From assembly GCA_039714155.1 (NCBI GenBank), contig JBDLJX010000002.1, positions 1,286-65,285 of the forward strand: a DNA stretch of 64,000 nucleotides. Direction: 5' to 3'. This DNA is from Pseudomonadota bacterium (GTDB lineage: Bacteria; Pseudomonadota; Gammaproteobacteria; UBA9214). The number at the start of each line of letters is the position of its first letter. Within the stretch, counting starts at the first letter, position 1. Of this stretch, positions 1,883 to 17,156 are shown one piece after another. Under the pieces are notes generated by a model. The model made no database searches. It was given only the letters and a program-made list of their open reading frames with translations, and was not told the origin of the DNA. The translations under genes and the position numbers were made by a program.

Positions 1883-2370
1883 CTGAGCGCGTCGCGGCAC
1901 GTCATTTACTGAACCCGTCCTGCTTCGTTGCGCTTGGCTTCGGCAGTGGGCTGGTACCGGTTGCGCCGGGTACCGCCGGCACGCTGGCTGCGATTCCGGT
2001 TTACCTGCTGCTGCAGGATCTCAACTTGAACGCCTACCTGGTTATTGTGGTTGCCATGTTCCTGGGCGGCATCCTGGTGTGCCATTACACCGCGGATCGA
2101 CTGGGTGTGCATGACCATCCTGCCATTGTCTGGGACGAGATCGTCGGTTACCTGGTCACCATGGTGGCGGCGCCAGCGGGATGGCAATGGATTGTTGCCG
2201 GTTTTGTATTGTTCCGATTGTGGGTAACAGGCGATTTCACGGCGGCGGCAGTTCGTATTTATCGGTATCGTTATAGTAGTGGGCGCCTGTGTCCAGCCAC
2301 TCGGCGATCAGTCGCAGTTCTGCCGGCGTCAGCATGCCCTTGTGGAAGGACAGGTCCTTGTTGGTCGTGA
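1879..2370 (+). CDS. pgpA: phosphatidylglycerophosphatase A; true 3' end uncertain, C-terminal ~45 aa non-homologous
   Basis: The N-terminal 115 aa match PgpA (GFGSGLVPVAPGTAGTLAAIP, GVHDHPAIVWDEIVGY, WQWIVAGFVLFRL). After FRL the conserved FDIxKPWPI...GGxGIMxDD tail is absent, and the frame runs 130 nt into the convergent 963-aa gene. Confidence 0.7.
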   Translation: MTERVAARHLLNPSCFVALGFGSGLVPVAPGTAGTLAAIPVYLLLQDLNLNAYLVIVVAMFLGGILVCHYTADRLGVHDHPAIVWDEIVGYLVTMVAAPAGWQWIVAGFVLFRLWVTGDFTAAAVRIYRYRYSSGRLCPATRRSVAVLPASACPCGRTGPCWS

Positions 2371-5128
2371 CTACCGCCTCGACTTCATAGATATCGTCGT
2401 CGGTATCGTCATCAAACAACCGGAAAAAGCGGGCACTCGGAATCGCCCCGCGGGCACTCATCAGGCGCCGGGTAATGCAAATGCCGTCCAGCGGTTCAAC
2501 CGAGAGGTCGCCTTCGATGCCATTCGGACAATCCGTAGCGGGATCTGATACCTGAATCCATTCACCATTCTCGTTCATCACGTAGTAATCGGTTTCAAAC
2601 AGCTGCACATAGGAGGTGACCTCCCCCGGGTTCCACGGATCAGGATCGCCACTCAACTCGAATTTGCCGTCACCGCCCTTGGGGCAGCTGTTCTGGGGGG
2701 TATTGTCGGCTTTGTCATGGCAACTGGTGCAGGACATGCCCCCCGCCTGCGGGCGGCAGGCATCCCAGATCGGCTGGATATGCTCCAGGTAGTTGATGGT
2801 GACCCTGCAGTTGCTGGTCCAGCTGTCCAGGCATAGCGGATCGTTTACCGGTGCGGGGGTCGTCAGATCGCCGTGGCTGTACACGAAAGGCTGGGCCAGT
2901 GTGCCGATGAAGGGATTGGTCCAGTAGTCTTCATAGACCACGTCGCCCGTGCCATTGGGTATGGTACCGAGCATGAATGCAAGGGCTTCCGCCATGGTAT
3001 CCCCGGCTGCGATGGCAATGATCTCTGGATTCGCATTCGGGAATGGCCCGGCTCCCGGCGCGCCCGGGTTGGCCGCGGCGGTCTCGATGTCCGTTCGTGC
3101 ATGCGGGATATCGTTGCCCGGGTCGTGGCAGCCGTGGCATTCACGCAGTTCACCTTCCTCCAGCAGCAGGGTGTGGGGATGGTCTGTCAGATAATTGTAG
3201 TTGTAGCCAGGCTCGGCGATCAGGTCCACGCGCTTGCCGTACTTGTTGACCACCTCGAAGGTGAAGTGGATATCATGCGGCACCTGGGCCAGGGCAGACC
3301 CGTCCGGCTCGACTGTGCCGTAAGACAGGATGTCATGCAGCTCCCGGTTACCGGAACCCAGGATCGGACGCAATCCCATCTGCGGCCCGCTGCCATCGGT
3401 GGGGTTGAGCACCGGGCTGTCCAGTATGGCCTGTTCCAGTTCACTGGGCATAAAGCGTCTGGTGAAGACGCGAATAAAACGTTCCGAACGATCGTCCGGC
3501 ACGGTGAGATAGGGATCACGCAGGGTCGTGATACCGCCATCCGGCTCGGCCATGTCCTGGCTGTCCAAATCGTAGACACTGAGAATATGGAAGGCACCAA
3601 AGCCCTCGTCCAGCAGGAAGTTTGCCTTCGGACTCTGATAGACACGCGCATTCTCGTTGTATTTGCCGATCACGATATCGGTATACAGGGCATGGCTGTG
3701 CCCCTTGACCACCGGAAGCCGGGTGTTTTCGTGCGGGTCGATCGTCCAGATCCCGTATTGTGGCGCACGCAAAGCGTCCGTGGTGGAAAAGCCCTCACAC
3801 ACGGCGCTGATCTCTCCTGACTGGGTGAGACACTGTGCCCAGCTCGCCAGCAGGCGACCGCTGCCATCACGATAGGGGAATACGGCGCTGTACCATCCGC
3901 TGGGCGAAACCTGGTCGGGATAGAAATTGACCAGGCCCGGTGTCATCGATTGTTCCGCCTCCCCGCTGACGGAATCATCGATGGGCTTGCCGACGGCATA
4001 GAAATTCTGGCTGTTGATCTTGACCACATCGCCGCCGTAAACCGGGTTGTAGATATGCCGCATAATGGTGATCAGGTTACCGTCGCGCATGGGGATCGGA
4101 TCCATATAGTGGATGAAGGATGCGTCGGTAACCTCTTCATTGATACTGCCGAAGTAGCGATGCAGGTTTCCGCCACTGGGTGCAATCCGGTACAGGCTAA
4201 GGATGTCCTGGATGAAAATACGGGTATCAGTCGTCTCGCCGGCAACCGAGCCGCCGCACTTGTCATCGGTGGTCCATGTCTTGGGATCATCCAGTCCGGG
4301 AGGAAATCCATTTCCGTTTCCGTGCCCGAAACCACCGCCGTGCGGATGGGTACTGAAATCCGGGTCATCGATGTTTTCTTCCGTACAGTCGGTCAGGACT
4401 TCGTACTCGCGACCCCAGCGAATAAACACGATCTGCCCGTCATTCATCGTGTTCGGCTCAATGTCATGATAGGCACCAAAGGTGATCTGAAACAGTTCGC
4501 TGCCATCCGGCTCCATGATATGCAGCAGCGAGGCCGGCTCGGCGAAATCGCCAATGTACTCCCGGCTGTCCGCCAGCCGGTAATCCCCGGTGGCGACCTG
4601 GCGGTCCGAAGAGAAGACGATGCGACCGTCATTCGTGTAGGCCGGGTTGGTGTCCTGACCTGTGTTGGCAAGTTCGTCATCCGCAAAAAACCTGCGAATC
4701 TCTCCGGTAGAAAAGTTGTACTCGTAGATATTCCAGTTGCTGTGGTGCGTATTGCCCTCCGGCCCGTGGGCAGCAAAGGCGATACGTTCGCCATCGGGCG
4801 AAACCGTGAGGTCCTTGACGTCATAGCTGCCACCGCCGAAATAGCCGGAGAGGATGTCCTTCTCATCAGAGGAAAGGGCAACCCTGTCACGCACAAACAA
4901 CCTGGCGCCAGGATTGAACTGATATGGCGAGCGTGGATCCAGAACCGGGCGGTCGTCCACAGAAGTCGTTTCCCCCATTTCCGGAAAGTCACGCACAATG
5001 TAGGCAAAGGGACTGTCCTGCAGTACGCCTTCCTCTCCGGTCAATCCTTCCTGCTGGCATGCGGCTACTGCGATAACCATCACTGTGACAAAAAAATGCA
5101 CTGTACATATTTTGAGTAGAGCATTCAT
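2237..5128 (-). CDS. 963-aa lipoprotein with PD40/TolB-like beta-propeller repeats and two c-type haem-binding motifs (CXXCH); function unknown
   Basis: AGGAGG sits 5 nt before the ATG. The signal peptide has a lipobox (MVIAVAAC). PD40-like blades are present (DLTVSPDGERIAFAA, NPAYTNDGRIVFSSDR, IMEPDGSELFQITFG, NTMNDGQIVFIRW). Two CXXCH motifs are present (RECHGCHDP and MSCTSCHDK). The C-terminus (IQPIWDACR...CTSCH...ELRLIAEWLDTGAHY) resembles Planctomycete-type cytochrome c domains. Confidence 0.6.
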   Translation of the reverse strand: MNALLKICTVHFFVTVMVIAVAACQQEGLTGEEGVLQDSPFAYIVRDFPEMGETTSVDDRPVLDPRSPYQFNPGARLFVRDRVALSSDEKDILSGYFGGGSYDVKDLTVSPDGERIAFAAHGPEGNTHHSNWNIYEYNFSTGEIRRFFADDELANTGQDTNPAYTNDGRIVFSSDRQVATGDYRLADSREYIGDFAEPASLLHIMEPDGSELFQITFGAYHDIEPNTMNDGQIVFIRWGREYEVLTDCTEENIDDPDFSTHPHGGGFGHGNGNGFPPGLDDPKTWTTDDKCGGSVAGETTDTRIFIQDILSLYRIAPSGGNLHRYFGSINEEVTDASFIHYMDPIPMRDGNLITIMRHIYNPVYGGDVVKINSQNFYAVGKPIDDSVSGEAEQSMTPGLVNFYPDQVSPSGWYSAVFPYRDGSGRLLASWAQCLTQSGEISAVCEGFSTTDALRAPQYGIWTIDPHENTRLPVVKGHSHALYTDIVIGKYNENARVYQSPKANFLLDEGFGAFHILSVYDLDSQDMAEPDGGITTLRDPYLTVPDDRSERFIRVFTRRFMPSELEQAILDSPVLNPTDGSGPQMGLRPILGSGNRELHDILSYGTVEPDGSALAQVPHDIHFTFEVVNKYGKRVDLIAEPGYNYNYLTDHPHTLLLEEGELRECHGCHDPGNDIPHARTDIETAAANPGAPGAGPFPNANPEIIAIAAGDTMAEALAFMLGTIPNGTGDVVYEDYWTNPFIGTLAQPFVYSHGDLTTPAPVNDPLCLDSWTSNCRVTINYLEHIQPIWDACRPQAGGMSCTSCHDKADNTPQNSCPKGGDGKFELSGDPDPWNPGEVTSYVQLFETDYYVMNENGEWIQVSDPATDCPNGIEGDLSVEPLDGICITRRLMSARGAIPSARFFRLFDDDTDDDIYEVEAVVTTNKDLSFHKGMLTPAELRLIAEWLDTGAHYYNDTDKYELPPP

Positions 5129-5236
5129 TTCATGCCTCCTGCTTCCTGGACTGGCCTGCCTTTACCTTTCATCGTCATGCTGTCTCAACTGATCAACCCC
5201 GGGTTTGCCGGTATTCCGCTATGCGGCTTGGCGAGA

Positions 5237-6211
5237 TCAGCCGGGGAGAAAGTCAAATTTGTAGTTGACCGGTGTCGCCAGGACATCATCGGGTCCGAAG
5301 TCGATCACACGGATTCGTGTCAGCAGCTTTTGCTCCAGCTTGATGCTCTCGAGCTCACTACTGATGAGTTCGATACTGGAAATCGCGCCATTGGGCTCGA
5401 TCACGATATGAAAGACATATTTGCCCCTGACTTCCGGATCCTTGCGCAACGCGCGGTTGTAGATGGCGTAAATCGCTCCCTTGTGCTGCTCGAAAACACG
5501 ACGTATGGACTCCATGTCCCTTCCACCGGCTACCGACGAATGATGTTTACCGCCACCGCTACCGCGCGCACCGCCCGAGCCGTCGCCGGTACCACCACCG
5601 CCGGTTCCGTCGCCGGCACCGAGTGGACTCGCCACCGAAACACCGCTGCGACCGGCCAGTTGCGTACTGCTGCCATGGCTGCTAATGGCGGAGGAGTTGA
5701 TTCCTCCGCTGGTCTTGACCGCCGTTTCGCGCCCAAGCACCGAGCGCCTGATCTTTGCTGCTGCACCGGTAGTAACGTTGGTGTTCCTGGCCTGAAGCTT
5801 GGCGACATCCAGCGAACTTCGCAGCGATTGCAGCTGATTGGAAAATGCCGCCACACCCATAGATGCGACTTTCTTCCTGGCCGGTGCTTTCTTTATCTGC
5901 TTCGCCGGGGGAGCCTCTTTTTTTACAGCTTTACTGGGCTCCACAGGCTTCTCGATTTCTACCGGCTCCGGTTTCGGCGCCGGGGGCGGTGCAGGCAACT
6001 TCTGCTGCAAAATAATCTTTGCCAGTGCTGGCGGCACGATTTCGGCCTGCTCCCGCTCAATTTCCGGTAACGGGAGCCAGGGGAAGACGATGGCCAGCAA
6101 CATAAACAGAAGAAGCAGGCGCTTGAGTATTTTCCTGAAGCGCACGTCTTCCTTGCGTGTGGCCTCCCAGGGAAGAACAAAATCGTTCAATAGCATTGCT
6201 GTCGTAGTCAT
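5237..6211 (-). CDS. tonB: TonB-family energy transducer
   Basis: N-terminal TM helix, Pro/Lys-rich spacer (PAPPPAPKPEPVEIEKPVEP) and a C-terminal TonB_C-like domain (GKYVFHIVIEPNGAISSIELI). It lies directly downstream of exbB-exbD-exbD. Confidence 0.8.
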   Translation of the reverse strand: MTTTAMLLNDFVLPWEATRKEDVRFRKILKRLLLLFMLLAIVFPWLPLPEIEREQAEIVPPALAKIILQQKLPAPPPAPKPEPVEIEKPVEPSKAVKKEAPPAKQIKKAPARKKVASMGVAAFSNQLQSLRSSLDVAKLQARNTNVTTGAAAKIRRSVLGRETAVKTSGGINSSAISSHGSSTQLAGRSGVSVASPLGAGDGTGGGGTGDGSGGARGSGGGKHHSSVAGGRDMESIRRVFEQHKGAIYAIYNRALRKDPEVRGKYVFHIVIEPNGAISSIELISSELESIKLEQKLLTRIRVIDFGPDDVLATPVNYKFDFLPG

Positions 6212-6223
6212 CCGGTATAACTC

Positions 6224-6727
6224 CTATGCGCCGGCGTTGGCCACCTGGGTCACCGCCATGGACAAATCCCGGTAGTTCGATTTTGCGCAGGTCACCATGA
6301 CACGCTTGAGTATTTCATACGGGATCGTATGGTCACCCAGGATGGTGATTGCCCTGCCACTCGCCTTTTCTTCCGCGGTCAACTGTGCGCGTTTCGAGGC
6401 CAGGTAGTTGAGCTCTTTCGCAAGCCCCGGGATTACACCGTCACTTTTTATTACCTCATCCATGGTTGCGACCGGCCGGCCGTCAACGATGATGTCGGAT
6501 TCGGTCACCATGACGGTGATGGTCGACTCGGGTTTTTGCTCGGCGACGGAATCAGGGAGCTTGATGTGCTTGCTCACTTTCAGTATCTCGTTATCACCGG
6601 AGTTGATGAGCAGAAAGAACACGAGAATCGTGAATATATCCATGAGCGAAACCAGATTGAGTTTCGCAGGCCTGAGAAAGCGCCTGTGATTCTGCTGCAT
6701 GCGTTCTGCAATACTGGACCTGTTCAT
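6224..6727 (-). CDS. exbD: ExbD/TolR-family biopolymer transport protein (second copy)
   Basis: 167 aa with a single TM (LMDIFTILVFFLLI) and a periplasmic ExbD domain. It overlaps the upstream exbD by 4 nt. Confidence 0.85.
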   Translation of the reverse strand: MNRSSIAERMQQNHRRFLRPAKLNLVSLMDIFTILVFFLLINSGDNEILKVSKHIKLPDSVAEQKPESTITVMVTESDIIVDGRPVATMDEVIKSDGVIPGLAKELNYLASKRAQLTAEEKASGRAITILGDHTIPYEILKRVMVTCAKSNYRDLSMAVTQVANAGA

Positions 6728-7233
6728 GAGTCGCCTCTCTTGGGTGGAGCATCACCCAGCGAAATTTCCGGAAACAGTTCAACTTCGACGGCACTGGTGG
6801 CAACAACCGTCCTGAACCCCCGCACGGTATCCATGGTGGACACCAGCGATTGATAGCTGACATCTGCCTCGGAGAGCAAAAGAACGTCAGACTTGTCCTT
6901 GACTTCCTTCTTGATTTCCCGCAGCACCAGGGACAGCGTCTCGTAGTCCAGTTTCTCACTGTCTTCCATATCCCTGGGCTCGATGCTCTTTATCAACACC
7001 CCGCTCGGGAAATACACCTCCAGGCCTGACTTGCGCAGTACCACCTCCAGCTGCCGGTTTTTCTCGGCACTCTGTGTCACCGCACCTGTCAGGTTCGGAA
7101 GATTGAGCCGTAGTATCGTGATCTGACTGAATACCATGCTCATCAACAGCACCGGGACCAGTACGATCATGAGATTCATAAAAGGCGTGATATTAAGATC
7201 CGCCTCCTCAAGTTCTCGTCGCTTTATGAACAT
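6724..7233 (-). CDS. exbD: ExbD/TolR-family biopolymer transport protein (first copy)
   Basis: 169 aa. NITPFMNLMIVLVPVLLM is the typical ExbD N-terminal TM. It lies 14 nt downstream of exbB. Confidence 0.85.
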   Translation of the reverse strand: MFIKRRELEEADLNITPFMNLMIVLVPVLLMSMVFSQITILRLNLPNLTGAVTQSAEKNRQLEVVLRKSGLEVYFPSGVLIKSIEPRDMEDSEKLDYETLSLVLREIKKEVKDKSDVLLLSEADVSYQSLVSTMDTVRGFRTVVATSAVEVELFPEISLGDAPPKRGDS

Positions 7234-7247
7234 AGTGTTACCACCTG

Positions 7248-7919
7248 TCAGATCTGTCCGTCAGCCGTCCGTACGGCAAAGGATTTGGGATGCCCCTTTA
7301 GAATCGCGTTCATGAACTTCACACCGGCCATTTCAATGCTGTCCACGATTTCGACCGTCTTGTTCTGCAGGACCGAGTGAAACAGAAGCAGCGGTATTGC
7401 AGCCATCAGGCCGAATGCCGTAGTGTTCATCGCTACAGAAATGGACTCGGACAAAAGCGTGGCCTTGTCGGCGGGATCGGCATGCGCCACAGCAGTGAAG
7501 GCAGCGATCAGGCCGATAATGGTGCCGAGCAGGCCGAGCAGTGTGGCGATGTTGGCCAGGATTGACAGGTAATTTGTACGTTTTGACAATCGCGGGACTG
7601 TTTCCAGAATACCCTCCTGCATGGCGGACTGGATATCATCCCTGCGCGGAGACGTCTGCATGGTCTCGACTGCAGCCAGAACAATGCGCGCGATCGCTGA
7701 CTTGCTGTTGTGAGAGTATTGCTGCGCCGTGTCGTATTTCCTGCCACTCAGCATCGGCAACAGTTCGGAGTAGGCCTTCTGGTTGGCGTACAGGGATTTT
7801 CTCAGAAAGTACCAGCGTTCGATTGCAATCGCGACCCCGATGGCCAGCACCAGCGCAATCGGGTACATAAAGGTACCGCCTGACTGAAAAAATGACGTTA
7901 TCGATGTGTAGGTATCCAT
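7248..7919 (-). CDS. exbB: MotA/TolQ/ExbB proton-channel protein
   Basis: 223 aa with three TM helices and a conserved TolQ/ExbB C-terminal region (LLGLLGTIIGLIAAF...NTTAFGLMAAIPLLLFH). Confidence 0.85.
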   Translation of the reverse strand: MDTYTSITSFFQSGGTFMYPIALVLAIGVAIAIERWYFLRKSLYANQKAYSELLPMLSGRKYDTAQQYSHNSKSAIARIVLAAVETMQTSPRRDDIQSAMQEGILETVPRLSKRTNYLSILANIATLLGLLGTIIGLIAAFTAVAHADPADKATLLSESISVAMNTTAFGLMAAIPLLLFHSVLQNKTVEIVDSIEMAGVKFMNAILKGHPKSFAVRTADGQI

Positions 7920-7995
7920 GATGTTCTCCCGGTCATTAACTAACTTGAAACAGATTCAATGTGGTACAGATACAAGCGCTTAGTTTCCTGTCATG

Positions 7996-8277
7996 TCATT
8001 CCCCCCCGGCAGGTCCTTCCAGAGAGAGTTCGTCGTAAAACTGAATACTTCTGGCCAGCACATCCCGGTCTACCGGGTCCAGCACATTCCCTGATATCGA
8101 TTTGATTGGCCGATACAGCTTGGATGGCCCTTCCGGCGGTTTCCATGGCGTGATGTAACTGACCGACGGCTGCTCCTTGTCACCGACGAAGGTGCTTTCC
8201 AGGTCGATTCGCTCCTGGGACCCTGCGCACAGGGGCGCAAGGAGGCAGAGTGTGGCTGTAATCGTTCGTACTGACAT
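7996..8277 (-). CDS. small secreted hypothetical protein (93 aa)
   Basis: Signal peptide (TATLCLLAPLCAGS). It sits between the TPR lipoprotein and exbB on the same strand. No recognisable domain. Confidence 0.4.
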   Translation of the reverse strand: MSVRTITATLCLLAPLCAGSQERIDLESTFVGDKEQPSVSYITPWKPPEGPSKLYRPIKSISGNVLDPVDRDVLARSIQFYDELSLEGPAGGE

Positions 8278-8349
8278 GACATGAATTCCCCAGTGATGAT
8301 TAAGCGGTATCGTAGATGCAGTTGATCATGAAATCGGCCCGCGCCGGTC

Positions 8350-9186
8350 CTAGTCCGCACCCTTGGTTGCGGCCACCGTGACGGCATCGTCGGATTCTGC
8401 CGCTGTTGTCTTGGCAGCCTTCGCCGGCGGAACATCAATAAAACTGCCATCAATGCCGGTTCTGTGTTTCACCTCGACCAGCCACTTGTGGACTTTCTCG
8501 TCTTTCTCTCCGGTAAGAAAGTAATAGGCCTCGTAATGCTTTTGCGCCGCCTCGGCCTTGTTCAGATACAGGTCATATAGAACTGCAAGATTCAGATGCG
8601 CCTCAGGGAAATCCCTCCAGACTCGCAATGCATCGAGATAGGTATGCTGGGCGTCGGAAAAATATCCCTGTCTGCGCTGCACCAGACCAAGCGCGATATA
8701 GGCATTGACGTTGTTCCTGTTTACACTGATCGCCTTTTTATAGCGCTCAATGGCAACCGTATATTTTTCCTGTTTTTCGGCTATTGCGCCCAGTTTTACC
8801 CAGGGACCGGCAAGCGAGGGATATTTTTCAGTCAGCATCCTGAATTTTGCGCTCGCTCCTTTAAGGTCTCCTGCCTGGAGCCGGTCGCTGGCTACAACGA
8901 ATATTGACTTTGCCTCACCCGGTACGGACGCATCTCCGGTGGTATACGGGTTCGGTATTGGCACGTAGGGAACTTTCTCGCCAGCAGGGTTGTAGACCTG
9001 TCGGGGCAGGGGGGCCTCAGCAGGCGAGACGATTGGAGCCTGGCGACTGGTAACGGCATCCGCTCCATCGGCCGGGCCTTTTGCCTGCGGTTTAACCGGC
9101 ACGACAGAACTGCATCCCGAAACCAGAACGGAGACCAGCATGCTTGCTGCCAGCGTGGGACGGAACTTACTTGATACCGTAGCCAT
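8350..9186 (-). CDS. TPR-repeat lipoprotein (278 aa)
   Basis: Lipobox LVSGC. C-terminal TPR repeats (YKKAISVNRNNVNAYIALGLV..., HTYLDALRVWRDFPEAHLNLAVLY). Confidence 0.7.
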   Translation of the reverse strand: MATVSSKFRPTLAASMLVSVLVSGCSSVVPVKPQAKGPADGADAVTSRQAPIVSPAEAPLPRQVYNPAGEKVPYVPIPNPYTTGDASVPGEAKSIFVVASDRLQAGDLKGASAKFRMLTEKYPSLAGPWVKLGAIAEKQEKYTVAIERYKKAISVNRNNVNAYIALGLVQRRQGYFSDAQHTYLDALRVWRDFPEAHLNLAVLYDLYLNKAEAAQKHYEAYYFLTGEKDEKVHKWLVEVKHRTGIDGSFIDVPPAKAAKTTAAESDDAVTVAATKGAD

Positions 9187-12013
9187 AACTCACCTGCATT
9201 TCCTGTTTGTCAAAACGGGCGGGTGACAGCTTCGCCATGGCGGCAAAACTCTTGTCTACCCAGTGATTGAAATTCCCGTCCCATGACTGCCTGATATTGT
9301 TCTCGTGTATTTCAATGGCCAGTTCCTCAAACGGAATGGCCTGTTCTTCCAGCAGCAGCTCATATTGCTGCAGTTCGGTTGTCGACAATCCTTTCGGGCG
9401 CGGCGAATCCATCAATTCCCTGGCAAAACTGGCGTACAGCTCGCCTATGCTGTAGGAGGCTCTGGCCGAGAATTCAAAAATTCCGTAACCGGCAGATTCT
9501 TCATAACGCTGCATTGCGTTTTTGAGTTTCTCGCTTTTCCTGGGCATCCACTTCTCGAGTGGCATACGCAATTTCACACGCTTAAACTCCCATCTCCAGT
9601 AGTCACCGTATTCAGCATTTGCCCAGGCAGCCAGCCACCGGGAACGATCGGTGCTGCGGCTGCCGGCCTTGCTGTCGCCATCGATAACCCGGCGTAACCA
9701 GTACAGATGCCGGGTCATGTCCTCGGTCTTCTTGTAGAGATGCGCCAGGTGGTAGCGTGCTTCCATCCGATTATCAAACGGTTCCTCGTAGGCATGTGCC
9801 CAGCGTTTGAAGTGATCAATGGCAATGGAGTACTCACCCGCCTTTTCGTACAACCCTGCGGCGATAAACAGGGCATCCCGCCTGGCGTTCTCGTCAGCAT
9901 CGTTGCGATAGATTGTCATGTATTCCCCTGCAGCCATCTTCCACTGCTCGTCCTGTTCGTAGGCATAGGCGATCTTCTGTGCAACAGTCTTGCCGAGTTC
10001 GTGATCGGGAAATTTGCTGCGCAACTCAAGCAGTTCCACCAGCGCCGGTTTCCATTGCTCCAGGGTCATCATGTGCGTTGCTGCATCGTATTGTGCCGCC
10101 ACGCGGGCACTTGACATGGGTGCGATGGTTTTGATTCGCAGAAAATGCTCGATAGCCTGATTCAGATCGTTGGCCTGCAATGCGGCATCACCCTGCTTGT
10201 AGGCGGTTGTAGCCACGCGCTCCAGGACGACCTCGTATTCCTTGTCCCCCCTGGGAATATATTTCAGTTGATTCTGGTATCCGGATTCGGCCTCCGCGTA
10301 ATTACCAAGCTCATACTGACTGTGGGCAATGACGCCATAGGCTGTCTTGTGCAATTTGCTGTCAATATCGCCGGTCCGGGATATCACACTGGTCGCCACC
10401 TCCAGTGCTTTCTCGTAGCGTTTCAGGGCAAACAGCTCTTCAGAGGCCTTGGCCAGAACCGCACCGGAACGCTTATCGCCCCTGTAGGTATTTACAAATT
10501 TCAGCTGGCTGTCCACAGTACGCGCGCGCCACTCGCTGAGTTGCGGTGAATCCTCTCCATGTGCCTTCTGCAGATCCTCTGCGTGCTTGTGGAAAGCGAT
10601 AATTGCGGCATAGCCGGCATCCGCGCCGTACTTGCCTTGCCCGTGGTGGTATGCGGTTTTCTCGTAACCCTCGATCGCAGCCACATAGTCACCGCCGTCG
10701 AACAGGGCTTCTGCCCGCATATAGGTCATCTCCTGGACTTGTGGATCCTCAGGGAAGGTTTCCATGAATTGCCGGTAGTATTCTGCGGCCTTGAGGAAGG
10801 AATCCCTCTCCTTCAGGGCGAGGGTGGCAAGCTTGTCACTATCCGCATCGGAGTCTGGGAGTTGCTTTTTCAGTTTTTGCCCGGTGCCGTGGTAATGACG
10901 CGCCAGCTCGTCAATATACGTCTTCAGATTGGGGATGACCTTCGCCTTTACATCACCTCCCTTGGTTTTCCAGAACTCGCTATGAATGCCGTAGTTCTGC
11001 ACGTAACGCTCTTTCTCCGGCAGGACCTGAGAGGAGAATTCTCCATCGATGTAAGCCCGGATCATCTCCGAGTGCATCTCGGGAGCCCGATCCGAGGTGG
11101 GATTCTGCAGTACAAAGGCACGATAGGAACCGGCCGAGTCCTCGTAACGCTCCTTTTCCAGGAAGTGTTTGCCCAGCCCCGAATACAGCAGCCAGGTGTA
11201 TTTCTTGCTTTGTGGGCGGTCTGCATAGAAATTGTTGATCTTTTCAGAGCCGCCCCCATAGGCAAGGCTCAGACTCATAATGCGCAGGGTGTCGTCGACA
11301 AGTGACCTTTCAACCTTGTCGAGTCGTTCGATCTTGCCGTCCCCGGGAACCAGCCGGTCGAGGACCTCGGAAAACGATGCCAGTCCACCATCGTAGTCTC
11401 CCAGCTTGTAGCGCGACCAGCCGAGCAGGTAATAGGAATTGTTGAGAAAGGCCGACTCCACACCCAGTGTGATTACAGATTGATAGGCAACCACGGCCTT
11501 TTCATATTGCCCGTCGCCGAAATGAATATCGCCCTTGCGGAAATACGCTTCACCAAGATGTGGCGATACCGGATATTGCTCGATAAAGGTATCCAGCGTT
11601 GACAGCGCCAGTATATCCTTGCCGTCGAGGTCATATGCCTTCGCAAGCTGATACAGGGATTCCGCATTGTCCGGATCACCGGGATACTTGCTGATCACCT
11701 CGTTGTAGGACTTGATCGCGGGTGCAAAATAACCGCCTTCCGGCGGATTGACATCAATCAATTGCCTGTAGTCGCCCTCCAGCATGTAGACACCGGCGAT
11801 ACGCCGTTCGATCTGCTCCCTGAGCTCCCTGTCTTCCACTATTTCCAGCAGCGACCGGTAGTCGTCCCTGACGTCCTTGTGACTGACCCTGGGCAGCGGC
11901 ACATCGTCAAGCGGTGCATCATCGGTGTTCAGTTTACCGATGGTCGTATTCTTCGATACAAGACCACACCCGGTGAGGAGCAGCATCGGGACTATCAGCG
12001 CTTTACGCAGCAT
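9167..12013 (-). CDS. large TPR-repeat lipoprotein (~948 aa from MLRKALIV start)
   Basis: Lipobox LLLTGCG. About 20 TPR-like repeats are spread over the whole length (recurrent AxxxY/AxxxF-LG spacing). The ORF is open to 12097; the start was chosen at the Met preceding the signal peptide. Confidence 0.7.
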   Translation of the reverse strand: MLRKALIVPMLLLTGCGLVSKNTTIGKLNTDDAPLDDVPLPRVSHKDVRDDYRSLLEIVEDRELREQIERRIAGVYMLEGDYRQLIDVNPPEGGYFAPAIKSYNEVISKYPGDPDNAESLYQLAKAYDLDGKDILALSTLDTFIEQYPVSPHLGEAYFRKGDIHFGDGQYEKAVVAYQSVITLGVESAFLNNSYYLLGWSRYKLGDYDGGLASFSEVLDRLVPGDGKIERLDKVERSLVDDTLRIMSLSLAYGGGSEKINNFYADRPQSKKYTWLLYSGLGKHFLEKERYEDSAGSYRAFVLQNPTSDRAPEMHSEMIRAYIDGEFSSQVLPEKERYVQNYGIHSEFWKTKGGDVKAKVIPNLKTYIDELARHYHGTGQKLKKQLPDSDADSDKLATLALKERDSFLKAAEYYRQFMETFPEDPQVQEMTYMRAEALFDGGDYVAAIEGYEKTAYHHGQGKYGADAGYAAIIAFHKHAEDLQKAHGEDSPQLSEWRARTVDSQLKFVNTYRGDKRSGAVLAKASEELFALKRYEKALEVATSVISRTGDIDSKLHKTAYGVIAHSQYELGNYAEAESGYQNQLKYIPRGDKEYEVVLERVATTAYKQGDAALQANDLNQAIEHFLRIKTIAPMSSARVAAQYDAATHMMTLEQWKPALVELLELRSKFPDHELGKTVAQKIAYAYEQDEQWKMAAGEYMTIYRNDADENARRDALFIAAGLYEKAGEYSIAIDHFKRWAHAYEEPFDNRMEARYHLAHLYKKTEDMTRHLYWLRRVIDGDSKAGSRSTDRSRWLAAWANAEYGDYWRWEFKRVKLRMPLEKWMPRKSEKLKNAMQRYEESAGYGIFEFSARASYSIGELYASFARELMDSPRPKGLSTTELQQYELLLEEQAIPFEELAIEIHENNIRQSWDGNFNHWVDKSFAAMAKLSPARFDKQEMQVSYGYGIK

Positions 12014-13811
12014 CGCCGTCTCCTTGTGTGGCGTGCTGCTGCTCATCTGACGGTGCGTCCGGGAGTCTGGCATCCGGCTCATCGTCCTGCCCGTCATCGG
12101 CAGGAGCTTCGAGGTCAGCCAGTGATTTATCCAGAATGCGCACTTTCGCCAGGTGTGACTGAACCCGGTAATACTTCAGCCGCTCCTCATGGATACCAAG
12201 TTCCGTATTGACCAGTTCGAGCATCACGCTCTCGACCTTGTCGATGAGCTGGTTGGTCTTCTCAAGCTCTTTTTCAAGGACATCCATATTGCTGTCTACG
12301 AGCGAGGCGTAGTGTTCGGTATTCAGCGACAAGCCGGGGGGCGTCTCAAGCTGCTCCGTCATCAATCCGGCACTGTTGATTTCGAACTGGATGTCATTTA
12401 GCAGCCACTGCACCCGTTCCCGGTCTTCGGGATTCAGTGCGGCCGTCAGTTGTGTCAGTGTGGAATAGTCACTCTGGAAGTCAGCCAGTTGTTCAGAACC
12501 GGTATTGATCTGCTGCGTCCGGTCCCTGCTGCCCAGTGATTTCGAGCGTGCAGTAAGGATGACGTCAAAGTCATCCTGCTTCCGTTTCCAGTTGTTCAGG
12601 TTATTGCGGATTGCATACAGATCACGCAAGTCCTTCAGTACAGACTGAAAGCTGTGGTCCGACATCAGTTCCAGCAGAAACGGGGAAAGTGAATTGATCG
12701 ATACGGACGGCGCTGTACCGAACCAGTCGCTTTCGCCAAGCATCTCATCGAGATTGTGGACGAATAACTCAAGCATATCTGCATCCTTGAGCGCTTCCTT
12801 TGCGCTACCCAGTTGCTCGAGTGCGCTTCCGTAGCGGTTATAGGCACTGATGAAGCCCTCGGCAGCACGGCCCGTCAGGCCAAGCTTTTCATATACGTGT
12901 GGTACCAGCAGCACTGCTTCCTGGACTTCCGGGACTGCCATCGATCGCTGCTGGAGAACTCCGAGCGGGGCAAGCGCCACTCGGTAAGAACCACTGTTGA
13001 CAGATGACCATCCGGACCCCAGCAGCGCACGGTTCGAGAAAACACCGGCCGTGCTGACCTGATTAATATGGTCATAGGCATTGTCATTGTCCTGCCTGTC
13101 TGCGTACAGGTAGGCAATCGCCATATGCGAACGATCCGCCAGCCGGTCCAGCTCACTGGTACCATCAGCATATGAGGCAGCCTTCTCCAGATTGCTGACT
13201 GCGCGCGTGTAGTCTTTCTGTTTGCCGAGCGCCACGCCCAGATTGAAAAAAAGAAAGGGCGCATAGGGACTTTTTTTACTGAAACTACCCGATATCTTCC
13301 AGGCTTCATCAAAATAGCCGAGCTTTATGTTGATCAACGCGGCCAGATACAGGTATTCCTGGTCGATCTCGCGTGGCATGGTTCCGCGAACATTAGACAG
13401 CGTCGCGGCTGCATGCTCGTTATCCCCCCTGAGGTAAAGCATCTTGGCCAGGAAAAACCAAGCCCGGTTCTGTACTTCCTCAGCGGTATTTGCGACGATC
13501 AAACTGTCGAAAATATCCTGCGCCTGCTCGTCAAGGCCATAGGACAGGCTGACACCGCCCTTGAGTAACTCCGGATAATCACCGTGATTCTGGATACCGC
13601 CTCGCTCATACGCGTACTCGTACTCAACGAGGGTTTCAAAATACTTTTGCTGATAGAATTCAAAAAGGATTGCACCGTATTTCAGGTCTTTTACCTCGTG
13701 CCCGATGGCAACCTGGCTACACTCCAGCAGGAATACTGCCGCCAGTAAAGGCGCGGCAACCATCCGGGTGCAACCAGCATAATTACCAGGTAAAAGTGTT
13801 TTCATGTTCAT
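12003..13811 (-). CDS. secreted TPR / coiled-coil protein with acidic C-terminal tail (602 aa)
   Basis: N-terminal signal-like hydrophobic segment and TPR-like repeats in the first ~330 aa. A coiled-coil region follows (LKDLRDLYAIRNNLNNWKRKQDD...) and then a D/E-rich tail. Contiguous with flanking genes. Confidence 0.55.
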   Translation of the reverse strand: MNMKTLLPGNYAGCTRMVAAPLLAAVFLLECSQVAIGHEVKDLKYGAILFEFYQQKYFETLVEYEYAYERGGIQNHGDYPELLKGGVSLSYGLDEQAQDIFDSLIVANTAEEVQNRAWFFLAKMLYLRGDNEHAAATLSNVRGTMPREIDQEYLYLAALINIKLGYFDEAWKISGSFSKKSPYAPFLFFNLGVALGKQKDYTRAVSNLEKAASYADGTSELDRLADRSHMAIAYLYADRQDNDNAYDHINQVSTAGVFSNRALLGSGWSSVNSGSYRVALAPLGVLQQRSMAVPEVQEAVLLVPHVYEKLGLTGRAAEGFISAYNRYGSALEQLGSAKEALKDADMLELFVHNLDEMLGESDWFGTAPSVSINSLSPFLLELMSDHSFQSVLKDLRDLYAIRNNLNNWKRKQDDFDVILTARSKSLGSRDRTQQINTGSEQLADFQSDYSTLTQLTAALNPEDRERVQWLLNDIQFEINSAGLMTEQLETPPGLSLNTEHYASLVDSNMDVLEKELEKTNQLIDKVESVMLELVNTELGIHEERLKYYRVQSHLAKVRILDKSLADLEAPADDGQDDEPDARLPDAPSDEQQHATQGDGDAA

Positions 13812-14447
13812 CTACCACTGCTTGACAGAGTATTCCGGCTGCAGCTTCATCGATGAATCGGAAATATTCAGTTCTACATACTTGGGGCCACTCTCCTTGT
13901 TGATATTCAGTGTGGTGCCGCGTTTATATTCCCTGCCGCTGGGACCCATGCCCGTAAAAAATGCGGACAAGGTGTGTTCGCCTACGCTCAAATTGGCCAT
14001 ATGCAGCTTGTGAATGCCGCCTTTGGACAGTGCCACCAGCTCCTTGCCGGAATAGATATGGCTGGCAACAACCTTTCCGTCAAGCTTGAGCTTGACTGAT
14101 TCCAGCGTAAAAAACTTGCCCACGTCCAGCGACAGGAACACGTTGACCTGGGTGTTGGCAGGAAACAGCAGATCTTCTTCCAGCACGCGCAGGTTCTTGT
14201 TCAATGCGATGACAGACAGCTTCAGTTCCTGAATATCCTTTGACAGGACATTCACGGATTCCTGCGCCTTCACCCTGCCCTGCGTGGCCTCAAGTGTGCG
14301 TTCCCCGTCTGTTGCCGTACCATCGTCCGAAACGACTGCACCGGAAACATCAGCCTCATCGACATCGGCATAAGGACTGGCCGGCATCGTGGACAATGCA
14401 ACAGCCAGGACAGCAAGAACGTTTCGCCGTATTGAATCGAGTTTCAT
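13812..14447 (-). CDS. secreted hypothetical protein (211 aa); first gene of the array
   Basis: Signal peptide (VLAVLAVALSTMPASPYA), a short coiled-coil, then a beta-rich C-terminus. Its stop abuts the start of the 602-aa gene (0 nt gap). Confidence 0.5.
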   Translation of the reverse strand: MKLDSIRRNVLAVLAVALSTMPASPYADVDEADVSGAVVSDDGTATDGERTLEATQGRVKAQESVNVLSKDIQELKLSVIALNKNLRVLEEDLLFPANTQVNVFLSLDVGKFFTLESVKLKLDGKVVASHIYSGKELVALSKGGIHKLHMANLSVGEHTLSAFFTGMGPSGREYKRGTTLNINKESGPKYVELNISDSSMKLQPEYSVKQW

Positions 14448-14449
14448 AA

Positions 14450-14828
14450 AACGCCTCTAACAGATAGTCCGTTTATCATCGCCTGATTACAACAAAACCT
14501 GACATGGAATATGCTTTTCAACAACATGTTCATTTCAATTGTGCGATCAAGCTCACAAATTGAACTGACTTGGTGAATACTGTACCTGCATCACAGTGCA
14601 CTACGTTGGAAGGCAATTAGTATTACATTGCATATCGTTTTCGAAGTGCACGTATACCCTCGGGTCTTTGACTGGAATAAATACTCAAGATAAGTTGTTC
14701 GTTACCGTAATAAAGAGAGAATCCTAAAGCATTAAGACTTGACCGGCGCAAGCGGGATGGCATATGGCAGCGATTGCCTTACCGCGCTCTGCAATTCAAA
14801 TTAACGTGAATAATGTGACAGCTTTAAC
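14450..14828. promoter_or_regulatory. AT-rich divergent intergenic region between the TPR/Ton array (-) and the OM beta-barrel pair (+)
   Basis: A 380-bp stretch of markedly lower GC than the flanks, placed between two divergently transcribed gene sets. No specific operator identified. Confidence 0.4.
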
Positions 14829-15629
14829 ATGATACGACTTTGGATAAGGTGCAATTTGCATGATGTGAGACACATTCTATGTGCATTGCTGTTGCTGGGC
14901 TGCCTGCCATCACAGGCCTTATGTTTTGACCTGTTCAATAATGACAGCCCGGATGTGAATGATTCCGTTTTTCTGGAAGTCACAGAACCATATATTGACA
15001 TGCACACCGGACCGGGCCGTGGTTACCCTGTATTCAACGTAGTCGAACAGGGCGAAACAATCGAGATACTCAAGCGGAAAACCAACTGGTACAAGGTAAG
15101 AAGCGCAGATGAAAAGACCGGTTGGACCAAAGCCTCACAGCTGGCACACACACTCAAGCCCACCGGAGTACCGGTAGACTTGCCGGAAATCACTCATGGT
15201 GATTACCTGAAGTCCAGCTGGCGCGTTGGCTTTGGCGCAGGACAGGTGGAGGGCTCGAACACCTTCAGCATCTCCGCTGGATACCGACCCTTAAGCTGGG
15301 CAGGTGCGGAACTCGAGTGGGGGAAGATTTTCGACAATTCGGTGACCAGCGACTTTTACGGCGCCAACCTCCTTGTGGAGCCTGTGCCGGACTGGATCGT
15401 CACACCATTCTTCACAGCCGGTGCAGGAATGTTTTCGTTTGATAGTCGGCACAAGGTTCTGGTCGATGACACAGGAACCTCCAGATATTTCAGTTTTGGT
15501 GCAGGAGCCAATTACTACATTGGACGCAACATTGTAATGCGGGGTGAATACCGCTGGTATTCGGTATCAACAGACGACGACAGTGTGGGGTTAAATTCAT
15601 GGAGAATCGGTTTAAGCACGTTCTTTTAG
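14829..15629 (+). CDS. outer-membrane beta-barrel protein with N-terminal bacterial SH3 (SH3b) domain
   Basis: Signal peptide, then an SH3_3-like segment (YIDMHTGPGRGYPVFNVVEQGETIEILKRKTNWYKVRSADEKTGWTKASQL). The C-terminal ~170 aa have alternating hydrophobic beta-strands ending ...RIGLSTFF (terminal Phe). Confidence 0.65.
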   Translation: MIRLWIRCNLHDVRHILCALLLLGCLPSQALCFDLFNNDSPDVNDSVFLEVTEPYIDMHTGPGRGYPVFNVVEQGETIEILKRKTNWYKVRSADEKTGWTKASQLAHTLKPTGVPVDLPEITHGDYLKSSWRVGFGAGQVEGSNTFSISAGYRPLSWAGAELEWGKIFDNSVTSDFYGANLLVEPVPDWIVTPFFTAGAGMFSFDSRHKVLVDDTGTSRYFSFGAGANYYIGRNIVMRGEYRWYSVSTDDDSVGLNSWRIGLSTFF

Positions 15630-16318
15630 GGCACAGAGATCGTCCCTGTTTTGCAGCAACTGTTGGCAAGTCACTTGTCATACTATCCCTGTGCTGGACA
15701 GGCCTGACGGTATTCGGGTCTGGTGCAATAGCAGCTGAGGCTGGTGATAAAACCGGAGCTGTTCAGGTTATTACTCCCGAAGTGAAACCCCGCGAGGTGA
15801 CTGAAGCCGATATCGATGACGAATCCTTCGAAATCGGTGTATTTGTCGGAATCATCAATATTGACAATTTCAGCAGCGAGCCATTGTACGGTATCAATGC
15901 GTCGTATTACGCTACCGAAGACTTCTTTCTACAGCTGAATTACGCTGTTTCCAGCGCTGATCTCACATCATTTGAAGAACTGAGCGGTGAAAATGTCCGG
16001 CTGTTGACTGATTCGGAACGCGACTATACGTATTACAACGCCCTGGTTGGCTACAATATCTTTCCAGGCGAGGTGTTCATGACGTCAAAGTTGACCTTCA
16101 ACTCGGCTCTCTATCTGGTGGGTGGCGTGGGTAACACCGATTTCGGTGGTGAAGACAATTTCACCATTACACTGGGAACAGGCTACCGTATTGTCCTGCG
16201 TGACTGGCTGACCTGGCATATCGACTTTCGCGATCATATTTTCAAGTCAGACATCATAAAAGAGGACCAGACCACCCATAATATGGAATTATCTACCGGT
16301 CTGTCGTTGTTTTTCTAG
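15599..16318 (+). CDS. outer-membrane beta-barrel protein (paralogous partner; start uncertain)
   Basis: Signal-like segment LVILSLCWTGLTVFGSGAIAA. Amphipathic beta-strands end ...LSTGLSLFF. It overlaps the upstream barrel gene by ~30 nt; the true start may be an internal or non-ATG codon. Confidence 0.6.
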   Translation: MENRFKHVLLGHRDRPCFAATVGKSLVILSLCWTGLTVFGSGAIAAEAGDKTGAVQVITPEVKPREVTEADIDDESFEIGVFVGIINIDNFSSEPLYGINASYYATEDFFLQLNYAVSSADLTSFEELSGENVRLLTDSERDYTYYNALVGYNIFPGEVFMTSKLTFNSALYLVGGVGNTDFGGEDNFTITLGTGYRIVLRDWLTWHIDFRDHIFKSDIIKEDQTTHNMELSTGLSLFF

Positions 16319-16496: not shown

Positions 16497-17156
16497 ATGC
16501 ACATAAAAGAAATTGTGATTTCACCGATCCCTTCTGATCCTGTGGAAGAGCAGCCACGTAACGGCCGGGTATACGGCATTGCTTTAAAGCAACATAACCG
16601 AATCCGGTTATGCAAATGTGCGTTTGAACTCTTTAATCAGCACTTCCTGTCAATCATAATCGATGAAGCATTCCATAGAACCCGGGAATATGAATTGCAT
16701 ATCGGCATACTCGACCCGGAGCCCGTTCGCTCACTGAGAGTCAACTGGGGTCATCTGGCAGCATTTTTCGTTCTTGCTGTGACTGCAGGACTGGCGGGAT
16801 CCACCAATCTTCTCCCGGATTCCGGCATTTGGCCCTCATTGCTGGGGGCGTGTGCAGGATTGTTTTTGATTCTGTGCGTTTACCGTTCCCATGACCACCT
16901 TGTGTTCTACAGCCGGAATGGTCGCATACCCCTGGTAATCTTGTTCAACCGAAACCCGGACCGGGAGACGTTCAGCAGGTTCATTACCGTATTTACCGAA
17001 CACATACGGGAGGCCAGCGCCAATCTCAACCTCGTCAGTGGAAGCGAAAGGTTAAACACTGAACTCAGGGAACATCGGCGCCTTATGGAAGAAGATATCA
17101 TTTCAAGGAAAAGATACGATATTGCAAAATCGCGTATCCTTGACCTGCACCGATGA
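16497..17156 (+). CDS. hypothetical membrane protein (219 aa, 2 predicted TM helices)
   Basis: Lower-GC ORF with two central hydrophobic helices (LAAFFVLAVTAGLAGS; SLLGACAGLFLILCVY). No recognisable family. Confidence 0.4.
   Translation: MHIKEIVISPIPSDPVEEQPRNGRVYGIALKQHNRIRLCKCAFELFNQHFLSIIIDEAFHRTREYELHIGILDPEPVRSLRVNWGHLAAFFVLAVTAGLAGSTNLLPDSGIWPSLLGACAGLFLILCVYRSHDHLVFYSRNGRIPLVILFNRNPDRETFSRFITVFTEHIREASANLNLVSGSERLNTELREHRRLMEEDIISRKRYDIAKSRILDLHR

Follow-up and report, generated by a model that had tools for sequence, protein, structure and literature searches.

A probable Agl-Glt-type core complex with an HzsA-related di-haem lipoprotein gene and a divergent pair of outer-membrane barrel genes in a gammaproteobacterium

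Introduction

What might a TolQ/TolR-type motor be doing in a gammaproteobacterium when its genes stand in a row with genes for tetratricopeptide repeat (TPR) lipoproteins and for a haem lipoprotein? The question is raised by a twelve-gene cluster at positions 2237-16318 of a 64-kb stretch of contig JBDLJX010000002.1 (assembly GCA_039714155.1), the whole of which we call the window. All twelve open reading frames (ORFs) are present in the ORF list and translations of the window where a sequence-only reading of this DNA had placed them. Ten of them lie on the minus strand and span 2237-14447. That reading had called them contiguous or overlapping, which is roughly right, as the intergenic distances run from -20 to +108 nucleotides (nt). 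The other two, on the plus strand at 14829-16318, encode outer-membrane barrels, overlap each other by 31 nt and diverge from the minus-strand operon.

The same reading suspected an Agl/Glt-like envelope machine rather than an uptake system, and stated that homologous clusters without a known function occur in some gamma- and betaproteobacteria. This agrees with the literature. Luciano et al. 2011 (PLoS Genet 7:e1002268, PMC3169522) defined a "core complex" of gltC, gltD, gltE, gltG, aglR, aglQ and aglS, the Group B genes, which lie in one genomic region, possibly an operon, have no known function and are accompanied by one additional gene without a Myxococcus homologue. In their account, the gliding and sporulation machines of Myxococcus evolved from this core complex. 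In later work on Myxococcus, the core still appears as a set of seven conserved genes whose function is unknown. Here we compare the cluster with that core, ask which further genes travel with it, and weigh what the assembly might do.

Results

Match to the published core complex

The eight minus-strand genes at 5237-13811 follow the order GltC-GltD-GltE-small gene-AglR-AglQ-AglS-GltG, as in Table S3 of Luciano et al. (PMC3169522). For Marinobacter, Hahella, Cellvibrio, Saccharophagus, Shewanella and Teredinibacter, that table gives lengths of 321-334 amino acids (aa) for GltG, 162-185 for AglS, 169-188 for AglQ, 217-272 for AglR, 162-263 for GltE, 933-1016 for GltD and 550-692 for GltC. Read in this same order, with the small gene after AglR, the window genes encode 324, 167, 169, 223, 93, 278, 948 and 602 aa; the core proteins are inside the published ranges or at most 15 residues off. 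Together with a profile match of the GltG-like protein described below (NCBIfam NF033768), this agreement favours the envelope machine over the uptake system, as the sequence-only reading had supposed, and we regard the genes at 5237-13811 with high confidence as a gammaproteobacterial Agl-Glt-type core complex. The core complex itself is already published, and with this cluster its family gains a further member.

The family is large and its gene order is stable. A scan of a collection of species-representative genomes (one genome per species), with an alignment of five GltD-like proteins as the query, returned at least 588 matching stretches that encode a GltD-like relative. The best 80 loci are all gammaproteobacterial and include Marinobacter, Hahella, Kangiellaceae, Cellvibrionaceae, Oleispira, Thalassolituus and Alteromonadaceae, as well as Steroidobacteraceae, Acidiferrobacterales, Chromatiaceae and Woeseiaceae. 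We clustered the ORFs of these 80 loci together with those of five further loci reached through homologues of the haem lipoprotein. One collinear unit recurs across the 85 loci, its order invariant, with the operon's 211-aa first gene present in 75, the GltC-like gene in 80, GltD-like in 84, GltE-like in 77, the 93-aa gene in 80, ExbB-like in 75, the two ExbD-like genes in 75 and GltG-like in 72. The shortfalls below 85 mostly reflect truncated contigs.

The TPR proteins

The GltC-like periplasmic protein (12003-13811, minus strand, 602 aa) has an N-terminal TPR region with weak TPR matches and a C-terminal coiled-coil and acidic region; its gene is directly upstream of the GltD-like gene in 80 of the 85 loci. 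The GltD-like large TPR lipoprotein (9167-12013, minus strand) measures 948 aa from a start that carries the lipobox LLLTGC. Its ORF, 9167-12097, would give 976 aa, and the internal Met before the lipobox yields the 948 aa that are also the length of the Marinobacter homologue. Homologues in Marinobacter, Aestuariibacter, Oleiphilus and elsewhere share 30-63% identity with it. Many TPR models match it, and its repeated TPR units match the YbgF/CpoB and BamD models; it even passes tol_pal_ybgF (97.8 bits, cut-off 90.1), a score summed from four to seven separate TPR stretches. By analogy with GltD of Myxococcus, it may serve as the central periplasmic scaffold. The GltE-like TPR lipoprotein (8350-9186, minus strand, 278 aa) carries the lipobox LVSGC and matches TPR_11 at 49.5 bits. 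In architecture, lipoboxes, sizes and order, these three proteins agree with the gammaproteobacterial homologues of MXAN_2541, MXAN_4870 and MXAN_4869, as reached through Table S3.

The motor and the GltG-like protein

The motor is encoded by three adjacent minus-strand genes, with gaps of 14 and -4 nt. The AglR-like TolQ/ExbB-type proton channel (7248-7919, 223 aa, three transmembrane helices) matches PF01618 (MotA_ExbB) at 98 bits, and the two TolR/ExbD-like proteins, at the AglQ position (6724-7233, 169 aa) and the AglS position (6224-6727, 167 aa), match PF02472 at 52 and 47 bits. Among NCBIfam models, tolQ (58 bits) outscores exbB (45-47 bits) for the channel and tolR outscores exbD for the pair, all of them under the equivalog cut-offs; the motor had been called TolQ/TolR-type from the sequence, and these scores agree. 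The ExbD-like protein encoded next to the ExbB gene (6724-7233) has Asn at the proton-binding Asp site (ITPFMNLMIV), and the other (6224-6727) keeps its transmembrane Asp (LVSLMDIFTIL). This Asn-then-Asp pattern recurs in 58 of 73 loci, and the second ExbD has Asp in at least 63 of the 73. Since a D28N change in AglQ abolishes function in M. xanthus, the proton-binding role in this cluster may sit on the Asp-bearing second paralogue.

Downstream of the motor lies the gene for the GltG-like TonB-type protein (5237-6211, minus strand, 324 aa), which has an N-terminal transmembrane helix, a Pro-rich linker and an AgmX-type C-terminal domain, with about 30 cytoplasmic residues at its N-terminus and no FHA domains. 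It passes NCBIfam NF033768, the AgmX/PglI C-terminal domain (56.8 bits, cut-off 40), in which AgmX is GltG and PglI is GltF, and NCBI names the identical protein "AgmX/PglI C-terminal domain-containing protein". Against the GltG equivalog, residues 190-305 align to model positions 510-628 of 650 with 26.8 bits, a score under the full-length cut-off because the cytoplasmic half is absent from the protein. The GltJ equivalog matches the linker only, with 28.7 bits against a cut-off of 450. No Pfam TonB_C (PF03544) match was found at E <=1e-2, and the family profile reaches the TonB C-terminal domains 5LW8 and 6SLY in the PDB only marginally (E 0.006-0.008). Of the Glt models compared, the GltG-type tail is recognised above its cut-off, and the GltE, GltG and GltJ equivalogs all stay below theirs. 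No cluster gene matches the Group A parts GltF, GltH, GltI, GltJ and GltK or the CglB adhesin in Pfam or NCBIfam.

Two small secreted proteins of the collinear unit

The small secreted core protein (7996-8277, minus strand, 93 aa) has a signal peptide and the motif GNxEQPxVLYIVPW. It is found in 80 of the 85 loci, always between the GltE-like and the ExbB-like gene, exactly where Table S3 skips one locus tag in every gammaproteobacterial cluster; it is probably the "additional gene" of Luciano et al. 2011. Its slot between gltE and gltG is held by gltF in M. xanthus; no sequence relationship was detected that would back an equivalence.

The product of the first gene of the operon (13812-14447, minus strand) is a secreted protein of 211 aa that combines a signal peptide with an amphipathic helix and a conserved, beta-rich domain some 115 aa long. 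The gene lies directly upstream of the GltC-like gene in all 75 loci that have it, and its alignment holds 31-52% identity across families. The 211-aa protein belongs to the collinear core and is absent from the published gene table (Table S3).

Neither small protein has a Pfam, NCBIfam or PDB match, and a profile of the 211-aa family against PDB sequences also gave nothing significant. Both were considered as PglI/AgmX-type relatives of the GltG-like protein and rejected (hhalign probability <=1% each).

The HzsA-related di-haem lipoprotein

The GltG-like gene is followed, after a gap of only 108 nt and in the same orientation, by a gene for a 963-aa lipoprotein (2237-5128, minus strand) with the lipobox AVAAC, a PD40 match and two CXXCH sites for c-type haem (CHGCH, CTSCH). 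Across an alignment of 42 homologues, the most distant at 32% identity, C664xxC667H668 and C800xxC803H804 never vary, and at least 90% keep the lipobox Cys24. Because these positions are conserved, the label "di-haem lipoprotein", which had been given from the single sequence, describes more than a chance motif. The family counts 333 matches at E <=1e-5.

Its profile aligns to hydrazine synthase alpha (HzsA, 5C2V_A) at E 6e-13 over the propeller, middle and C-terminal regions. The Pfam HZS_alpha match is weak (17.5 bits against a cut-off of 26.6). An AlphaFold2 (AF2) model (mean pLDDT 79, predicted TM-score (pTM) 0.73) has 5C2V as its best Foldseek match in the PDB (E 1e-21), with TolB propellers next (E 1e-11 to 1e-9); the TolB equivalog gives 25.3 bits, far from its cut-off of 343. 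No HzsB or HzsC genes are in the cluster. From profile and model, the 963-aa protein is a full-length HzsA relative, a di-haem propeller lipoprotein and not a hydrazine synthase. A literature search for HzsA-related proteins outside anammox bacteria found nothing relevant.

The paired outer-membrane barrels

Barrel 1 (14829-15629, plus strand, 266 aa) has an N-terminal SH3b domain (SH3_3, 39.7 bits), an OMP_b-brl match (37.1 bits) and a C-terminal FF; its match to TIGR04565 is weak (23.5 bits). Barrel 2 (15599-16318, plus strand, 239 aa), with a signal peptide, an N-terminal strand and a predicted eight-stranded barrel matching OMP_b-brl, passes TIGR04565 "OMP_myx_plus" at 165.9 bits (cut-off 60). 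Its family, 660 clusters at 50% identity, shares a strand-like motif V-x-V-I-E/T-P...ID.E.FE.G right after the signal peptide and a C-terminal FF. The AF2 model places the barrel at residues 76-238 and a loop helix at 124-132, and leaves residues 1-72 disordered. The best Foldseek matches of this model in the PDB are Ail, NspA, the OmpA transmembrane domain and the OprF barrel 4RLC; the barrel 2 profile gave nothing significant against PDB sequences. Among its best 150 matches, homologues are listed as gammaproteobacterial wherever the source names an organism.

The barrel domains of the two proteins are paralogous (hhalign probability 97.9%, E 4e-13), and barrel 1 is always paired with barrel 2 (21 of 43 loci, see below). 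The pair diverges from the operon across a spacer of 381 nt (14448-14828) with 40.9% GC, compared with 55.7% for the window, so that the picture of two paralogous barrels, one with SH3b, transcribed away from an AT-rich region holds. The spacer presumably contains the promoters of both transcription units. A promoter and terminator scan gave counts not above those of shuffled sequence, and no FNR, Fur, CRP or sigma-54 site is conserved across the divergent spacers of nine loci.

In Myxococcus, GltA and GltB are interacting OprF-like barrels with unstructured N-terminal extensions that become ordered on GltC, and GltB carries what may be a TonB box, as well as a helix spanning residues 121-134. 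The resemblance of our pair to GltA/GltB (or NfsA/NfsB), as described and modelled, is suggestive and makes them candidate homologues.

The deposited annotation of the source metagenome-assembled genome gives barrel 2 as a protein of 178 aa (P0142, 99% identical over 74% of the query), without the signal peptide and the conserved N-terminal strand. This public start is doubtful and probably wrong, because the 239-aa form is conserved over its full length in most listed homologues. A third, barrel 2-type barrel stands beside the pair in survey loci L016, L017, L018, L020, L022 and L024 (Kangiellaceae, Marinibactrum, Agaribacterium and relatives), and three is also the number of barrels in Myxococcus (GltA, B, H).

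A redox neighbourhood with changing members

To describe the surroundings of the core, neighbours were surveyed with hidden Markov models in the 43 GltD-anchored loci that have full 10-kb flanks. The HzsA-like gene is present in 29 of these, the barrel pair in 21, an AhpC/TSA-type thioredoxin fold in 15, ApbE in 13, a CXXCH protein in 15, a LamG di-haem protein in 11 and DUF3570 in seven. At least one gene for an extracytoplasmic haem, flavin or thiol protein lies near the core in 40 of the 43.

The arrangement differs by lineage. Marinobacter and a Logan contig share that of the window. A second order, HzsA-like, SH3-barrel, barrel, thioredoxin-like, DUF4266 and DUF3570, is seen in Aestuariibacter, Oleiphilus and an ENA contig; the core follows on the same strand in the first two and on the opposite strand in the ENA contig. 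Upstream of these three runs a divergent trio encoding a CXXCH protein, a LamG di-haem protein and a third product that bears a twin-arginine translocation (TAT) signal. Steroidobacteraceae-type loci have a divergent HzsA-like gene and no barrels, and Cellvibrio-type loci have only ApbE ahead of the 211-aa gene. The HzsA-like gene and the barrel pair thus remain near the core through at least three different arrangements, while their position and strand vary by lineage; we take this retention through several rearrangements as an argument for functional coupling. The sequence-only reading had called for a survey of the whole array in relatives, and the survey separates its parts: the core is collinear throughout, and the HzsA-like gene and the barrels come and go. 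The HzsA-like lipoprotein is an accessory, lineage-variable partner of the core. Neither it nor the barrel pair is listed as a part in the published Agl-Glt descriptions that we compared, in agreement with the earlier remark that the cytochrome/propeller lipoprotein is not a described component.

The trio recurs in many loci upstream of the HzsA-like gene (in L002 at 4956-6176, 2493-4955 and 851-2467; likewise in L003 and L004). Its products are a protein of about 400 aa with a single invariant CXXCH, one of about 830 aa that has Laminin_G_3 and two such motifs, likewise invariant, and one of about 540 aa carrying the TAT signal. The divergent trio is another haem module tied to the Glt core.

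Among the redox neighbours is the ApbE/DUF3570/DUF4266/thioredoxin module of Meheust et al. 2021; the ApbE/DUF3570/thioredoxin module is also widespread without Glt genes. No homologue of ApbE, DUF3570, AhpC or the LamG cytochrome is present anywhere in the window. ApbE does not obviously target the core, because the flavinylation motif [ST]GA[ST] is not conserved in any core protein. In the Cellvibrionaceae-type loci (L031, L032, L037-L040, L042-L045, L047, L057, L068 and L070), the gene for the flavin transferase ApbE comes immediately before the core operon, about 1 kb upstream of the 211-aa gene; type II secretion genes stand further upstream, and no HzsA-like or barrel genes occur within 10 kb.

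Genomic context of the cluster

No TonB-dependent transporter is found among window ORFs of at least 600 aa, as the sequence-only reading had noted; those outside the cluster encode ParE, ParC, AcrB and a GGDEF-EAL protein. The cluster is flanked by convergent nusB-thiL-pgpA at one side and by genes for a two-transmembrane protein, a NERD protein and a GATase at the other. Because its 3' end abuts nusB-thiL-pgpA, no receptor gene can belong to the operon on that side. A megablast search with the motor region found nothing among plasmid records, and the nearest relatives of the window are uncultured Gammaproteobacteria.

The pgpA ORF (1879-2370) overlaps the HzsA-like gene at its 3' end by 134 nt in antisense orientation. 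Its PgpA Pfam match ends at profile position 101 of 141 and the domain is not continued in any other frame, and the C-terminus of pgpA may be truncated or frameshifted where it joins the cluster. On the other side, after barrel 2, lies a gene for a 219-aa two-transmembrane protein (16497-17156, plus strand) without a significant family match in Pfam or NCBIfam. It stands beside the cluster in close relatives only, and homologues directly follow the HzsA-like gene in Marinobacter and Hahella loci (e.g. L001, 12928-13605); perhaps the protein accompanies the cluster in particular lineages. Just past the cluster are also a NERD nuclease-domain gene (17539-18141) and a gene for a retropepsin-like (gag-asp_proteas) aspartyl protease (19136-19789), neither with an evident tie to it.

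Discussion

A proposed mechanism

The cluster represents the core in its simple form rather than a machine for gliding or for making a spore coat. In our proposal, it combines an Agl-Glt-type core with an accessory outer-membrane module, acting on a platform and on the haem lipoprotein; as a whole, we hold this to be somewhat better supported than its negation. Its parts deserve different degrees of trust. That the cluster transduces force across the envelope, driven by the proton-motive force (pmf), is likely. By inference from Myxococcus, the proton-driven stator would pull on the GltG-like protein, whose C-terminal domain would dock on the GltD-like scaffold, and the GltD-, GltE- and GltC-like proteins would bridge the periplasm to the outer-membrane platform. 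Whether the two barrels are this platform is evenly balanced in our judgement. If they are, the platform would be a heterodimer of two paralogous eight-stranded barrels, in which the conserved N-terminal strand of barrel 2 could provide the handle for docking, and barrel 1 could hold the wall through its SH3b domain. We suggest only tentatively that the HzsA-related lipoprotein is a client or working partner of the core. The work done would then be to place, expose or gate a redox lipoprotein, here the HzsA-related one, at the outer membrane. A parallel may be seen in Myxococcus, where GltABHK handles CglB, a lipoprotein that contains a beta-propeller. It has also been suggested that the core could suffice for protein secretion (Islam et al. 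2020).

A broader idea follows the same line. The gammaproteobacterial Glt-type core might be a proton-driven machine dedicated to extracytoplasmic redox proteins, working through a GltA/B-like barrel pair; haem lipoproteins, or flavinylated and thiol proteins in other lineages, would be installed, exposed or mechanically gated at the outer membrane. We consider this generalisation speculative and rather improbable.

Several observations weigh against the proposal. Within 10 kb of the core, the HzsA-like gene is found in only 29 of the 43 full-flank loci and the barrels in only 21, and ApbE is alone near Cellvibrio-type cores; neither the HzsA-like gene nor the barrel genes can therefore be obligatory parts. 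The surveyed loci are phylogenetically related, and their counts overstate the number of independent events. The GltE-like protein scores just 33.6 bits (E 2e-8) against the NCBIfam GltE equivalog, whose cut-off is 225, a weak match that is not above those of other TPR models. A literature search for a functional study of the gammaproteobacterial core found nothing relevant.

Alternative explanations

The strongest rival is a transporter of other cargo, in which the core would be a general pmf-driven mover of a surface polymer or a secreted protein and the redox genes frequent but independent neighbours. There is precedent in Agl-Nfs, which moves spore-coat polysaccharide, and the variability of the accessory genes suits this explanation, as the HzsA-like gene (29/43) and the barrels (21/43) are not universal, both are missing from Cellvibrio-type loci, and the ApbE/DUF3570/thioredoxin module is widespread without Glt genes. 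Against it, the HzsA-like gene and the barrel pair adjoin the core through at least three rearrangements, and in the window the HzsA-like gene follows the GltG-like gene by 108 nt on the same strand; an extracytoplasmic redox gene is present in 40 of the 43 full-flank loci, and no gene for polysaccharide export, Wza or a glycosyltransferase for example, recurs among the recurrent neighbour families examined. We judge this explanation unlikely, if less so than the ones below. A paralogue of Tol-Pal type with a tethering or stabilising role at the outer membrane, made up of a TolQ-TolR-TolA-like motor, a TolB-like propeller in the N-terminal domain of the 963-aa protein and CpoB-like TPR proteins, is a still weaker candidate and, to our mind, quite unlikely. 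It draws on the tolQ and tolR models, which score best on the motor proteins, on the tol_pal_ybgF pass of the GltD-like protein (97.8 bits, cut-off 90.1), on the TolB propellers that come next after hydrazine synthase in the structural search (E 1e-11 to 1e-9), and on a local order, Q-R-R-A-propeller, that mirrors tolQRAB. Yet the YbgF score is gathered from separate TPR stretches of a 948-aa protein, which is not the architecture of CpoB, and the TolB equivalog gives only 25.3 bits against its cut-off of 343; the propeller protein is instead a full-length HzsA relative with invariant haem sites, its gene is far upstream of the motor or absent in other lineages, and the cluster holds no Pal-like or OmpA-C-like peptidoglycan-binding lipoprotein.

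The ExbB-ExbD-ExbD-TonB architecture also invites the view that these genes are an ordinary TonB-ExbB-ExbD energiser for nutrient uptake, with receptors encoded elsewhere; JGI pipelines name homologues "protein TonB", and the family profile reaches TonB C-terminal domains, if only marginally (E 0.006). Against this view, a TonB-dependent transporter is found neither among window ORFs of at least 600 aa nor among the annotated neighbour families of the 85 loci, the GltG-type tail passes its cut-off where Pfam TonB_C gives no match, and the motor genes are bound in one unit with five genes for non-Ton periplasmic proteins or lipoproteins. Teredinibacter turnerae offers a further argument. Without its four recognised tonB genes, it does not grow on low iron or on cellulose, and according to Table S3 (PMC3169522) it has two complete Glt-type clusters with GltG-like genes and a separate motor trio; we infer that the tonB mutant retains these Glt-type GltG-like genes, which the mutant paper never mentions. 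An uptake energiser is therefore very unlikely. Least credible of all is a working gliding-motility or spore-coat machine like Myxococcus Agl-Glt or Agl-Nfs, for which seven homologous components and an outer-membrane barrel pair might speak. The component list drawn up from the sequence stands for the simple core and fails for the parts specific to motility and sporulation: GltH, GltI, GltJ, GltK and a CglB-like adhesin are not in the cluster, and the GltG-like protein has about 30 cytoplasmic residues and no FHA domains. Moreover, Luciano et al. 2011 (PMC3169522) considered the core insufficient for motility, and gliding is undocumented in most of its carriers.

Significance

The function of the gammaproteobacterial core has been open since 2011, even as GltD-like relatives are encoded in at least 588 stretches, many from abundant marine and sediment gammaproteobacteria. 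The core is nearly always beside extracytoplasmic haem, flavin or thiol proteins, and the window adds a candidate platform and a candidate lipoprotein client. Compared with the literature that we consulted, the new points are the core extended by the 211-aa protein, the recurrent HzsA-like gene and barrel pair, and the near-universal redox neighbourhood. Drawn from neighbourhoods and models, they make the question of core function testable in culturable relatives such as Marinobacter and Hahella. In the published scenario, barrels were recruited only in Myxococcales and Bdellovibrionales; if the barrels of this cluster are GltA/B homologues, that assembly scenario of the gliding machine needs revision. 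Should the core prove to be dedicated to redox proteins and to work through a GltA/B-like barrel pair, it would represent a new class of energised systems for redox or secretion at the outer membrane, and the outer-membrane platform would predate the Myxococcus gliding machine instead of being a later deltaproteobacterial addition.

Comparison with known systems

The haem lipoprotein shares with HzsA of Kuenenia stuttgartiensis (5C2V) the propeller, the middle and the C-terminal haem domain and both CXXCH sites. It differs in being a lipoprotein of a gammaproteobacterial host with an identity of about 14%, and its genomic partner is a Glt-type motor rather than HzsB and HzsC. With Tol-Pal, the cluster has in common a TolQ/TolR-type stator, an elongated transducer that spans the periplasm, a TolB-like propeller fold and TPR proteins. 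In contrast to Tol-Pal, it has two different TolR paralogues and no Pal, its propeller is lipid-anchored and fused to two haem domains, and its TPR proteins are 3-4 times larger than CpoB.

The machines of M. xanthus, Agl-Glt and Agl-Nfs, resemble the cluster in the TolQR-like AglRQS motor, in GltG with its AgmX-type TonB-like C-terminal domain, judging by architecture, size and order, in the lipoprotein TPR scaffolds GltD and GltE and the periplasmic GltC, and, judging by description and model, in paired small barrels of the OmpA/OprF class with disordered N-terminal extensions. Unlike them, the window lacks GltH, GltI, GltJ and GltK and the CglB or CglD adhesin, and its GltG-like protein is without FHA domains, hence without a link to AglZ/MglA; its motor genes lie inside the cluster, and a haem lipoprotein stands in place of a VWA adhesin. 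The closest relative is the Agl-Glt core complex (PMC3169522) itself. The HzsA-like gene, the barrel pair and the thioredoxin/ApbE/DUF3570 and cytochrome genes, all variable by lineage, are not in its published table, and the window adds the 211-aa first gene as a second conserved extra. Nothing essential otherwise sets the two apart: the gene order, the protein sizes and the organisation as a single cluster in a gammaproteobacterium are alike.

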